The notes under the pieces were generated by a model. It was not told the origin of the DNA. It searched no databases and saw only the letters and a program-made list of their open reading frames with translations. Position numbers and translations under genes: made by a program. A stretch of DNA of 64,000 bases from a virus. The stretch is taken from the IMG/VR virus record IMGVR_UViG_3300039412_000320; one strand, given 5' to 3'. The stretch's first letter is position 1. The number at the start of each line of letters is the position of its first letter. Of the stretch, positions 29,133-30,692 are shown in pieces.

Positions 29133-29221
29133 GTCGGGATGGGTGAGAGGCTAAAACCATCTGTCTGTAAAACAGACGCCCCCTGTGGGCTACGCAGGTT
29201 CAAATCCTGCTCCCGGCACCA
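29133..29221 (+). tRNA. tRNA-Tyr(GTA), class II, CCA encoded
   Basis: Acceptor gtcggga/tcccggc, anticodon arm tctgt-ctGTAaa-acaga, long variable arm, T-arm gcagg-ttcaaat-cctgc. Confidence 0.75.
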
Positions 29222-29324
29222 AGTTTTGGCAGCGTTCCGTGGAAGAATGCGGTAGGACACGAGAACATACCGTGAGGGCAACCACAGCGGTGTCACCGGT
29301 CCCTTGACGCTGCTAATAGTTTAT

Positions 29325-29409
29325 GCGGTCGTGGTGGAATTGGTAGACTCGCCAGATTGAGAGTCTGGTCCCGAAAGGGGTGGGGGTTCAAGTCCCCCCG
29401 ACCGCACCA
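29325..29409 (+). tRNA. tRNA-Leu(GAG), class II
   Basis: Acceptor gcggtcg/cgaccgc, anticodon arm ccaga-ttGAGag-tctgg, long variable arm, ggggg-ttcaagt-ccccc. Confidence 0.75.
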
Positions 29410-29458
29410 AAATCAAATATGGTAGCTACGCAGTACATATGTAAGGAGCGTCTGCCAT

Positions 29459-30085
29459 ATGAAACATATCAAGTATACAAAGGAGTTGCTTGCTCCTATC
29501 GTAGCCGATAGCAAAAGCTATGCTGAGATTATCCGAAGATTGGGGATAAAGCAAGGAGGAGGAACTCAAAGGCTTTTAATTGAGAGAATCAAAGATTATG
29601 AACTTAGTACTCTTCACTTTCTCGGTACACGACGGAACAGTGGGCTTGAGCATACGGGTGGTTCAAGAAAACTCCATTGGACTGAAGTTCTAATTTTTAA
29701 TCGTCGTAATGGAAGAAAAGAGACAACCAACAGGTTACGACGAGCGATGATTGAGTCTGGGATTCCTTACGTATGTGATGAATGTGGTTGTTCTCCAGAG
29801 TGGCGTGGTCGATTGCTTGTTTTAGAAATTAACCACAAAAATGGGGATAACAGGGACAACCAAAAGAATAATGTTCAATTCATCTGTCCTAATTGCCACT
29901 CTCAGACAGAGAATTTCAGAAGTAAAAACATTGGCCGAGTGGTCAAATTGGCAAAGGCGCTTCCCTCAGAAGGAAGAGATTTTGTGGGTTCGACTCCCAC
30001 CTCGGCCACCAATTTTGCGAGAGTGGTGGAACTGATAGACACGCCAGCCCTAGAAGCTGGTTCGGGAAACCGAGTGAGGGTTTGA
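29459..30085 (+). CDS. HNH homing endonuclease inserted in the tRNA array; 3' end of the ORF reads through two tRNA genes
   Basis: FICPNCHSQTENF HNH core. The ORF has no stop until 30085 and overlaps tRNA-Leu(CAG) and tRNA-Leu(TAG). Confidence 0.5.
   Translation: MKHIKYTKELLAPIVADSKSYAEIIRRLGIKQGGGTQRLLIERIKDYELSTLHFLGTRRNSGLEHTGGSRKLHWTEVLIFNRRNGRKETTNRLRRAMIESGIPYVCDECGCSPEWRGRLLVLEINHKNGDNRDNQKNNVQFICPNCHSQTENFRSKNIGRVVKLAKALPSEGRDFVGSTPTSATNFARVVELIDTPALEAGSGNRVRV
29933..30011 (+). tRNA. tRNA-Leu(CAG)
   Basis: Acceptor ggccgag/ctcggcc, cttcc-ctCAGaa-ggaag, gtggg-ttcgact-cccac, CCA encoded. Confidence 0.65.
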
Positions 30086-30103
30086 CTCCCTCCTCTCGCA
30101 CCA
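30017..30103 (+). tRNA. tRNA-Leu(TAG), class II
   Basis: Acceptor gcgagag/ctctcgc, ccagc-ccTAGaa-gctgg, long variable arm. Confidence 0.7.
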
Positions 30104-30108
30104 GATTT

Positions 30109-30201
30109 GCCAGAGTGGTGGAAGTAGGTATACGCACCAGTCTCAAAAACTGGCGTCCCATTAAACGGACATGGGGGTTCGAGGCCCCCCCTCTGGCACC
30201 A
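30109..30201 (+). tRNA. tRNA-Leu(CAA), class II
   Basis: Acceptor gccagag/ctctggc, ccagt-ctCAAaa-actgg, long variable arm. Confidence 0.7.
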
Positions 30202-30319
30202 GATTGGGTTGCTGGCTGAATAAGCCACGACCTCGATGTGCAAGCAGGCCATGCCCTGACGAGGGATGTATCTGGCATCGGGGTACAGGAAGCGTCCTGT
30301 CCAAGCGCCCATAGTTTTT

Positions 30320-30411
30320 GGAGAGGTGGGGGAGTGGCTTAACCCAGCAGTTTGCTAAACTGCCGACCCCCGTAAGGGGGTCCGCTGGTTCAAATCCAGT
30401 CCTCTCCGCCA
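30320..30411 (+). tRNA. tRNA-Ser(GCT), class II
   Basis: Acceptor ggagagg/cctctcc, gcagt-ttGCTaa-actgc, long variable arm cgacccccgtaagggggtc. Confidence 0.75.
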
Positions 30412-30416
30412 TTTTC

Positions 30417-30504
30417 GGAAGGCGCTGCGGAATGGTCTGTAACCGGCTTTGAATACCGGGGCGTGGATAAAACCACGGGGGTTCGATTCCCCAGCTTTCC
30501 TCCA
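30417..30504 (+). tRNA. tRNA-Ser(TGA), class II
   Basis: Acceptor ggaaggc/gctttcc, anticodon loop ttTGAat, long variable arm. Close paralogue of Ser(CGA). Confidence 0.6.
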
Positions 30505-30511
30505 TTTTTAC

Positions 30512-30600
30512 GGTGAGATGAGCGGAATTGGCATCGCCCCCCGTTGGAAGCGGGGCTTGGGGTAATACCCATGGGAGTTCGAGTCTCCCTCTCACCGCCA
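30512..30600 (+). tRNA. tRNA-Ser(GGA), class II
   Basis: Acceptor ggtgaga/tctcacc, ccccg-ttGGAag-cgggg, long variable arm. Confidence 0.7.
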
Positions 30601-30606
30601 AGTCCC

Positions 30607-30692
30607 GGAGGATGCCACGGAATGGTCCGTAACCGGTCTCGAAAACCGGGGCAGGGCAAACCCTGGGGGTTCGATTCCTCCTTCCTCCGCCA
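30607..30692 (+). tRNA. tRNA-Ser(CGA), class II
   Basis: ccggt-ctCGAaa-accgg, long variable arm, ggggg-ttcgatt-cctcc. Confidence 0.7.

Follow-up and report, generated by a model that had tools for sequence, protein, structure and literature searches.

A probable leader-peptide attenuator ahead of a tyrosine, leucine and serine tRNA array in a jumbo phage

Attenuators of amino-acid operons (trpL, leuL, hisL, thrL, ilvL and pheL, and that of pheST) combine a short leader open reading frame (ORF) rich in regulatory codons, an intrinsic terminator just ahead of the first regulated gene and an alternative hairpin with some sequence in common with the terminator, its 5' strand being covered when the ribosome reaches the end of the ORF. 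Phage tRNA clusters, such as those of T4, T5, mycobacteriophages and huge or jumbo phages, are dense and lie on one strand, with short spacers and isoacceptor groups. Discussion of these tRNA genes has usually centred on the reason for their presence (codon usage, host tRNA loss or counter-defence), and their regulation is essentially unexplored. We know of no previous attenuator that controls tRNA genes, and full-text searches, with subscription journals mostly outside their coverage, returned no literature that connects phage tRNA arrays with leader peptides or attenuation. Here, we describe a locus that resembles both kinds of system. It lies in a virus-derived stretch of 64,000 nucleotides (IMG/VR record IMGVR_UViG_3300039412_000320; hereafter, the window), in which nine plus-strand tRNA genes for Tyr, Leu and Ser form a phage tRNA gene array of 1.56 kb at positions 29133 to 30692 (array 1). 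Our analysis indicates that transcription of this jumbo-phage operon is probably controlled by ribosome-mediated attenuation of the trp/leu/his type.

The locus differs from the amino-acid-operon attenuators in that tRNAs are regulated instead of enzymes or synthetases, with a product that feeds back on the sensed codons. Its leaders hold about one codon per tRNA species, for up to nine amino acids, rather than runs for one or two, and they are phage-encoded, with no sequence or Rfam kinship to the known leaders. It resembles phage tRNA clusters down to an accompanying gene for a CCA-adding-enzyme-like nucleotidyltransferase (46554-47576), but has separate arrays behind matched leaders, with array 1 limited to Tyr, Leu and Ser; our literature searches turned up no comment on either of these two features. 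The proposed mechanism is classical; the tRNA genes as the regulated product and the multi-codon "sampler" design appear to be new.

We located tRNA genes in the window using ARAGORN and Rfam covariance models. ARAGORN called 27, all on the plus strand and in two arrays (Table 1). The conserved leader unit of array 1 spans 28993-29128 and ends, with its terminator, 5 nt ahead of tRNA-Tyr. Its ORF (leader 1) encodes a 28-codon peptide in which codons 4-22 are nearly all Leu, Ser or Tyr (CTA TCG TCC AAC TCG TTA TCG TAT AGT AGC TCA TTG CTG CTT AGC GGC CTC...). This stretch includes every Leu codon (six), five of the six for Ser and the Tyr codon TAT, and the leader offers a cognate codon to each of the nine array-1 anticodons. 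A scan of 15-codon windows in all six frames of the 64 kb (77,427 windows) placed the maximal density of Leu, Ser and Tyr codons in leader 1, with 14 of 15 codons compared with at most 11 elsewhere and a mean of 3.2. These three amino acids account for 17.8% of the phage codons, and the Leu and Ser codons are all used fairly evenly. The array-1 tRNAs read 15 of 27 leader codons and the array-2 tRNAs read 5 of 27.

Table 1. Positions of the tRNA arrays, their leaders and associated elements in the window
Feature	Position	Strand	Remarks
Promoter-like extended -10 TGgTATTAT (27424-32) and 5' UTR (untranslated region)	27424..27549	+	near-identical in L001
Insert of ~1.44 kb, absent from L001	27550..28992	.	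compared by eye with L001
Leader ORF 1, MKNLSSNSLSYSSSLLLSGLVLPDGWDG, then stop	28993..29079	+	translation
Antiterminator hairpin (predicted)	29040..29118	+	fold, ribosome-mask model, conservation
Intrinsic terminator GAGGCGGCT-AACA-AGCCGCCTT and T-run	29103..29128	+	
tRNA-Tyr(GTA)	29133..29221	+	long variable arm, A73, CCA encoded; ARAGORN
Structured spacer, 103 nt	29222..29324	+	fold z = -2.5; Tyr to Leu(GAG)
tRNA-Leu(GAG)	29325..29409	+	long variable arm; ARAGORN
HNH homing-endonuclease ORF	29459..30085	+	PHROG HNH E = 6e-46, residues 2-164
tRNA-Leu(CAG)	29933..30011	+	79 nt, 7-nt stemless variable loop AGATTTT; ARAGORN
tRNA-Leu(TAG)	30017..30103	+	long variable arm; ARAGORN
tRNA-Leu(CAA)	30109..30201	+	long variable arm, 93 nt; ARAGORN
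Structured spacer, 118 nt	30202..30319	+	cloverleaf-like three-hairpin fold without CCA; fold z = -2.6
tRNA-Ser(GCT)	30320..30411	+	long variable arm, G73; ARAGORN
tRNA-Ser(TGA)	30417..30504	+	Sec-like D arm, C-A anticodon-stem mismatch, U73; Rfam tRNA-Sec
tRNA-Ser(GGA)	30512..30600	+	long variable arm; ARAGORN
tRNA-Ser(CGA)	30607..30692	+	Sec-like D arm: 5-bp stem, 4-nt loop; ARAGORN
A-run/hairpin/T-run	30707..30741	.	between array 1 (+) and convergent MVP-like gene (-)
TGgTATTAT promoter-like motif	48287..48295	+	upstream of leader 2; kept in L029
Leader ORF 2, MRNRKPNPMQWQPKRHFSRPSFGGLPFAGVA, then stop (starts MRNRKPNPMQWQPKRHF...)	48480..48575	+	translation
Leader-2 switch (predicted)	48543..48634	+	terminator 48602-48628 and T-run
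Array 2, 19 tRNAs	49026..55447	+	HNH, GIY-YIG homing-endonuclease ORFs interspersed; ARAGORN
TGGTATTAT motif copies	27283(-), 27424, 33298, 33664, 48287		

The roughly 135 nt before tRNA-Tyr form a very stable fold (z = -6.6). The 3' part of the leader ORF (29040-29070) contributes the 5' strand to a long hairpin that carries the stop codon TAA (29077-79) in its apical loop, and the 3' strand of this hairpin overlaps the 5' strand of the terminator, so that the two structures compete. To follow this competition, we masked a ribosome footprint at each codon and computed equilibrium pairing probabilities. In this in silico model, the probability of the terminator, P(terminator), was about 0.02 with the A site at codons ~7-14 and exceeded 0.9 with the A site at codons ~17-28. 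The switch was insensitive to footprint length and was reproduced by none of 200 shuffles of the ORF region. The initial annotation had placed one terminator upstream of the array and a bidirectional one downstream, and we found both. The downstream A-run/hairpin/T-run is plausibly a bidirectional terminator, whereas the upstream hairpin, previously taken for an ordinary terminator, is probably the end of a conserved leader-peptide attenuator instead.

No sigma-70-like promoter was detected in 27200-30900. Since the terminator ends 5 nt before tRNA-Tyr (and, in the related locus L029, that of leader 2 ends 8 nt ahead of tRNA-His), there is no room for a promoter between terminator and array. 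The extended -10-like motif TGGTATTAT (TGgTATTAT) occurs five times in the window against 0.3 copies expected, twice upstream of the tRNA leaders, and is probably a phage promoter element. In the related locus L001, the segment with this motif continues directly into the leader ORF. As a separate observation, the motif DGWD (29062-29073) is common to leader 1 and to leader 1 of the Tunturiibacter phage Tunturi_5 (locus L006, ~19543-19554) in synonymously different codons (GAT GGG TGG GAC in the window and GAC GGT TGG GAC in Tunturi_5), a hint that the nascent peptide itself may have a function.

Array 2 repeats this design with its own matched leader, and for this reason we regard the Tyr/Leu/Ser grouping as one regulatory unit. 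Its tRNAs belong to the His/Arg/Asn/Lys/Phe/Met/Pro/Gln/Trp families and include a long-arm Trp(CCA) and a long-arm Arg(CCT). Upstream of it lie, in order, an extended -10-like motif, a structured 5' UTR and leader ORF 2. The first 17 codons of leader 2 specify only the nine amino acids of array 2, with a variety of isoacceptor codons (Arg CGA/AGG/CGG; Pro CCA/CCG/CCT), and cognate codons are present for all 15 tRNA species of the array. Leader 2 is the window-wide six-frame maximum for these amino acids (16/16 compared with at most 14 elsewhere). Array-2 tRNAs read 20 of its 30 codons and array-1 tRNAs read 3, and each leader lies on the correct strand directly upstream of its own array. Two segments, TTCGGTGGGC (48543-52) within the leader-2 ORF and GCCCACCGAA (48602-11), the 5' strand of the terminator, are complementary, and in the mask model P(terminator) stayed low at codons 5-14 and reached 0.96 or more from codon 19 onward.

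Both loci are conserved in close relatives. In the relatives, array 1 adjoins the same gene and keeps the order of a Tyr gene, a Leu block and a Ser block (Tyr; Leu TAA, GAG, CAG, TAG, GAG, CAA; Ser GCT, TGA, GGA, CGA), and the block order His-Arg-Asn-Lys-Phe-Met-Pro-Gln-Trp of array 2 is kept as well. Between the window and L001, the leader hairpin is ~100% identical, with changes in the terminator loop only, compared with 91.6% DNA identity for the adjacent gene and 61-89% for the tRNAs (window 29133-30692; L001 12716-14319). The tRNA substitutions are mainly compensatory changes in stems, and the array-1 tRNAs appear to be either unusually fast-evolving or in the course of replacement. The leader-1 ORF differs from that of L001 by indels of +9 and -3 nt, both of which stay in frame and add or remove Ser and Leu codons, and leader 2 differs from its L029 counterpart, in the portion that the two ORFs have in common, by four substitutions, each of them synonymous. 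The mask model also predicted a switch for L001 leader 1 and L029 leader 2.

We then surveyed 16 arrays, searching for a leader within 700 nt of each and scoring every leader against every array. A clear matched leader was present in about half of them, and mismatched pairs in the leader-by-array matrix scored low unless their amino-acid sets overlapped. Among seven further arrays, the leader was the outright locus-wide six-frame maximum in five and a tied maximum in one. Matched leaders also occur in unrelated phages, their composition tracking that of the arrays behind them. The cultured 309-kb phage Tunturi_5 has a first array of the order Leu-Cys-Leu-Leu-Tyr-Leu-Ser-Ser-Ser, which comprises all Leu, Tyr and Ser tRNAs of the genome (PMC11924767); that paper makes no comment on array organization. 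Its leader 1, MKTLCLSSYCLSSSLSLSDGWD... (MKTLCLSSYCLSSSLSLS...), is followed by a terminator, with the first tRNA 5 nt on, and contains two Cys codons, matching the tRNA-Cys that intrudes among the Leu, Tyr and Ser genes. Leader 2 of the same phage, MQHVSTFRFAVPATAGNPAGQQGTNA..., contains ACA/ACC/ACG, GCA/GCC/GCG, CAA/CAG and CCA/CCG, corresponding to the Thr, Ala, Gln and Pro isoacceptors behind it. A third leader was predicted and then found in gp308 (annotated as "hypothetical"), in which D, R, K, V, W, E, I, G and M are abundant and which is followed by a terminator and the array Trp-Asp-Met-Met-Lys-Val-Lys-Arg-Arg-Glu-Glu-Arg-Arg-Val; its enrichment is weaker because the amino-acid set is large.

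In the 735-kb genome LR756501, MLQTSKHSKHFSSSSKWF... (SKHSKHFSSSSKWF) precedes Trp-His-His-Phe-Lys-Ser, and its segment TTCGGGGTT mimics the terminator 3' strand, with a model switch at codons 10-17; a second leader, MNFRIINMIQEQMQQIQ... (IINMIQEQMQQIQ), precedes a Met/Gln/Ile/Glu array. In Mycobacterium phage Myrna, a leader of Leu and Ser alone, MFALLSLSSSLRLS and a stop codon, lies 23 nt ahead of a separate array of Ser and Leu genes only, and in Xanthomonas phage Xoo-sp13, MNKLYYKRYYKKLP and a stop codon precede Lys-Lys-Tyr. A leader of this kind also precedes Ser-Leu-Leu-Leu-Ser in contig L007, again composed of Leu and Ser alone, where a possible promoter within the ORF makes the case ambiguous. 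Most tRNA groups of Xoo-sp13 showed neither segregation nor a matched leader, and a metagenome scan for leader-1 homologues with the Ser(TGA) anticodon arm yielded none that were new, recovering only the L001 phage and a different family of long mixed-class arrays. Class segregation is not universal: LR756501 spreads Leu, Tyr and Ser over three arrays, and the classes are interleaved in the metagenomic arrays L034-L040 and in phage Rey. In one respect the segregation exceeds chance, in that the order of Tyr, Leu block and Ser block is kept in close relatives; other arrays mix the classes.

From these data, we infer translation of the leader, the choice between termination and read-through, the sensing logic and the processing of the transcript. 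Transcription from the upstream extended -10 promoter would enter the leader encoding the 28-codon peptide. When decoding is fast, the ribosome would cover the 5' strand of the hairpin, the terminator would form and transcription would stop 5 nt before tRNA-Tyr. When decoding is slow at any of the sampled codons, the ribosome would stall upstream, the long hairpin would sequester the terminator 5' strand and RNA polymerase would read into the array. Slow decoding could arise from scarcity of charged tRNA through a mismatch with the host pool, host tRNA decay or cleavage of tRNAs by a defence system, and the data fit host-pool mismatch, host tRNA loss and defence cleavage alike as the signal. 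Host RNase P and 3' nucleases would presumably then release the tRNAs from the precursor, and the outcome would be negative feedback on the supply of exactly the tRNAs of the array. By the mask model, stalling is predicted to permit read-through at about 8-10 codon positions, which suggests that a full tRNA complement needs to be split into several operons. The partition into arrays would then be functional, though the choice of Leu, Ser and Tyr for one of them may be historical. The simplest guess is that the three share a unit through common descent in the long-arm class.

The tRNA genes themselves bear on this guess. The nine genes with the anticodons originally listed were all recovered, eight by ARAGORN and Ser(TGA) by the Rfam tRNA-Sec model (34.5 bits against a gathering score of 47) and by an ARAGORN-called orthologue in L001 that is 89% identical to it and has a compensatory change in the D stem. 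All nine encode CCA. Leu UUA is the only Leu or Ser codon without a tRNA in array 1, in agreement with the near-complete isoacceptor sets noted initially. The nine had been described as exclusively class II (long variable arm), which applies to eight of them (a variable region of at least ~10 nt with a stem-loop) and not to Leu(CAG). Likewise, spacers of 5-7 nt are found at five of the eight junctions, the others measuring 103, 523 and 118 nt; the 523-nt gap, between Leu(GAG) and Leu(CAG), contains the HNH endonuclease ORF, and the 118-nt gap separates Leu(CAA) from Ser(GCT). Within the window, which is part of the genome, all Leu, Ser and Tyr genes lie in array 1, but the long-arm Trp and Arg genes of array 2 show that the claim of one operon for all class II tRNAs goes too far.

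Tandem duplication with anticodon change, also proposed at the outset, is consistent with the paralogues Ser(TGA) and Ser(CGA), which are 74% identical and have in common an unusual Sec-like D arm, and with Leu(GAG), Leu(TAG) and Leu(CAA), which are 68-70% identical to one another. It does not extend to Leu(CAG), which has no sibling in the array (57-60% identity to the other Leu genes) and is 87% identical to the short-arm Leu(CAG) of Tunturi_5 and 82% identical to the L007 gene. A short-arm counterpart is absent from L001, and by its sequence Leu(CAG) comes from another lineage than the remaining Leu genes. Common descent of the Tyr, Leu and Ser genes was considered and found no support beyond generic tRNA similarity; since the identity of Tyr to the Leu and Ser genes of the array is only 49-67%, such descent is not demonstrated.

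An ordinary constitutive array, which matches phage codon usage or offsets host tRNA loss, could also account for the tRNA genes. Its Leu/Ser/Tyr content would stem from tandem duplication and anticodon change in the long-arm class, the small ORF would be incidental and the hairpin would end the preceding unit or stabilize the precursor. The paralogies just described, the blocks of isoacceptors in both arrays and the leaders with no predicted switch fit this explanation. Phage tRNA arrays are common, and explanations by codon usage and host tRNA loss are established (Bailly-Bechet 2007, as cited in PMC11924767). We nevertheless consider it unlikely, because it leaves unexplained the window-wide maxima for exactly the amino acids of each array, the reciprocal specificity of leaders and arrays, the co-variation of Cys codons and tRNA-Cys in Tunturi_5, the in-frame indels and the synonymous-only changes. 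The lack of a promoter between terminator and first tRNA and the better conservation of the leader than of flanking genes argue in the same direction, and the low identity of Tyr to the Leu and Ser genes weakens the descent on which this explanation draws. That the leader binds tRNAs directly, without translation, like a T-box with several specifier codons, is highly improbable. A T-box also senses tRNA status and controls a terminator/antiterminator pair, and the leader codons lie just upstream of such a pair as in T-box leaders, but T-boxes bind tRNA directly at one specifier codon, regulate synthetase and amino-acid genes and have a signature that is absent here: Rfam families, including T-box and the Leu, His, Thr and Trp leaders, gave no match on either leader at E<=5-10. 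Each leader is instead one open frame with an ATG and a stop, with in-frame indels and synonymous substitutions, and DGWD is kept between the window and Tunturi_5 despite its synonymous differences.

A third alternative keeps the same architecture with counter-defence as its driver: the leader would detect the loss of host tRNAs to an anticodon nuclease or toxin and induce replacements that escape cleavage. Phage tRNAs that evade anticodon nucleases have been reported. The lower conservation of the tRNAs than of the leader and the flanking gene would fit an arms race or frequent replacement, as would the non-canonical shapes (Sec-like D arms, short-arm Leu, long-arm Trp and Arg), and tRNA arrays have been put forward as anti-defence systems (PMC12803027). 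Conversely, most substitutions between orthologues are compensatory stem changes outside the anticodon loop, and simple supply mismatch fits the data equally. We regard counter-defence as a possible but rather doubtful driver, better placed than the constitutive array.

Several observations weigh against the attenuator itself. Its support is wholly computational, and in the mask model P(terminator) was only 0.58 for leader 1 with no ribosome present. The Leu codons TTG, CTG, CTT and CTC (codons 15-20) lie beyond the predicted antitermination window, and the Shine-Dalgarno-like sequences upstream of leader 1 are weak. Leader 1 has TTA in the absence of Leu(TAA) from array 1 of the window, and leader 2 has AAA in a window with no Lys(TTT). 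About half of the surveyed arrays have no matched leader within 700 nt, and no switch was predicted for three of the nine leaders modelled (Tunturi_5 leader 1, one from LR756501 and that of Myrna). Amino-acid starvation would also trip the switch and would not be relieved by extra tRNA. In the window itself, the ~1.44-kb insertion parts the promoter from leader 1, and an antisense HNH gene (~48630-48948) parts leader 2 from tRNA-His; owing to both insertions, attenuator control may be impaired in this genome. The first insert (27550-28992) consists of two HNH gene pieces (~27556-27660 and 28793-28996) split by minus-strand ORFs. The second encodes 105 amino acids and sits in the leader-2 terminator, a remnant of which lies just before tRNA-His. 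A leader that mirrors the array codons points to a demand-regulated tRNA supply and away from simple constitutive independence; the initial annotation had suggested systematic codon-usage independence from the host.

Some tRNAs of the arrays have unusual structures. Ser(TGA) and Ser(CGA) resemble the (8/4) tRNASer, or allo-tRNA, that Mukai et al. (2017, PMC5389517) described from tRNA clusters of phages: they share a long variable arm, G73/U73, a Sec-like D arm, Ser anticodons and the phage cluster setting. Because of this D arm, the Rfam tRNA-Sec model gives them higher scores than the tRNA model does. By pair counts, 8/4 and 7/5 pairing are indistinguishable here, with 11 of 12 pairs each way, and in L001 Ser(CGA) 8/4 is ahead of 7/5 by a single pair. 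In Mycobacterium phage Rey, gp113 (L041 6999-7127), annotated as a hypothetical protein, overlaps a match ~80% identical to these Sec-like Ser tRNAs, and the region is probably an unannotated non-canonical tRNA. Leu tRNAs without a long variable arm (73-79 nt) occur in several unrelated phages (L006 20002-20080 and 20445-20522; L007; L005; L031). In array 2, tRNA-Trp(CCA) (52750-52839) is 90 nt long and has a variable arm of 16 nt (3-bp stem, loop UUCG), with A8 in place of U8; its acceptor stem, G73 and anticodon arm are like those of bacterial tRNATrp. In close relatives, two Trp genes of the ordinary 76-nt length take its place. tRNA-Arg(CCT) (55276-55365), also of 90 nt, has a GAAA-capped variable arm of 5 bp and one additional nucleotide separating its acceptor and D stems, with G1 paired to U72, A20 and A73. 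Judging by acceptor stems, discriminators and anticodons, the two look like genuine Trp and Arg tRNAs with a hairpin insertion. ARAGORN also called long-arm Pro, Met, Cys, Asn and Arg tRNAs in other phage arrays (L008, L005, L032, L043 and L016).

The two structured spacers of array 1 are absent from L001. They were considered as small ORFs or degenerate tRNAs, and only the modest fold z-scores emerged, with no tRNA match at E<=10. In L001, a minus-strand segment of ~230 nt after Ser(CGA) (12490-12715), absent from the window, has tRNA-like ends (GCCAGCGTAGCTCG...CCTGCCGCTGGAGCTA) around a long insert and may be a split or intron-containing tRNA. The leader-2 5' UTR contains three tandem mini-hairpins (48399-48466), each followed by ACCA and a GTTT/TTTT spacer that resembles the inter-tRNA spacers (for example GGGCC-GAAA-GGCCC-ACCA), and L029 carries a compensatory change in the first; these elements may be acceptor-stem minihelix mimics or processing sites.

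T4 SegB-type homing endonucleases occur in tRNA clusters, and HNH and GIY-YIG ORFs likewise lie inside and beside both arrays. Here, the insertions are many more than in the SegB case, some are in or next to leaders, and one ORF has no stop before the next tRNA: the domain of the HNH ORF in array 1 ends near 29932, but the frame stays open through Leu(CAG) and ends within Leu(TAG). In L001, an HNH ORF lies between Tyr and Leu(TAA) instead and is encoded on the opposite strand. A search for related loci with ORF 54468-55265 returned unrelated contigs because this ORF is a mobile GIY-YIG endonuclease.

Other genes of the window encode a collagen-repeat tail fibre, a ClpB-like AAA ATPase (17357-19843, minus strand) interrupted by an intein with a LAGLIDADG domain, several homing endonucleases and a protein of 810 amino acids resembling the major vault protein (MVP-like; 30761-33193, minus strand), with shoulder and repeat domains (Pfam E = 8e-22). 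The MVP-like gene is found at 94% amino-acid identity in two IMG/VR contigs of 237,553 and 316,945 bp, and from the size of these relatives we take the source to be a jumbo phage. Homologues 41% identical to the protein occur in the 462-kb LR756500 and in LR756501, with no tRNAs nearby. At the DNA level, the phage collection contained no close relative and gave only matches of tRNA size. Little gene content is common to the window and the examined 40 kb of Tunturi_5, and one Tunturi_5-like tRNA gives no more than a hint of an Acidobacteria host.

Since matched leaders occur in cultured systems, namely Tunturi 5/Tunturiibacter psychrotolerans, Myrna/Mycobacterium smegmatis and Xoo-sp13/Xanthomonas oryzae, the attenuator proposal is readily testable. 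We also favour, somewhat less firmly than the attenuator of array 1, the broader proposition that large phages carry separate tRNA regulons, each with a "codon-sampler" leader holding about one codon per tRNA species of its array. If this is true, such phages would gauge decoding capacity codon by codon and transcribe only the tRNA sets that are limiting, and the leaders would give a direct read-out of the codons that matter to the phage and serve as compact natural sensors of decoding capacity for specific codons. Codon-sampler regulons would then provide a rationale for the partition of arrays into units such as Tyr/Leu/Ser, and would constitute a general feedback circuit in phages of Acidobacteria, Actinobacteria and Xanthomonas and in the largest known phage genome.

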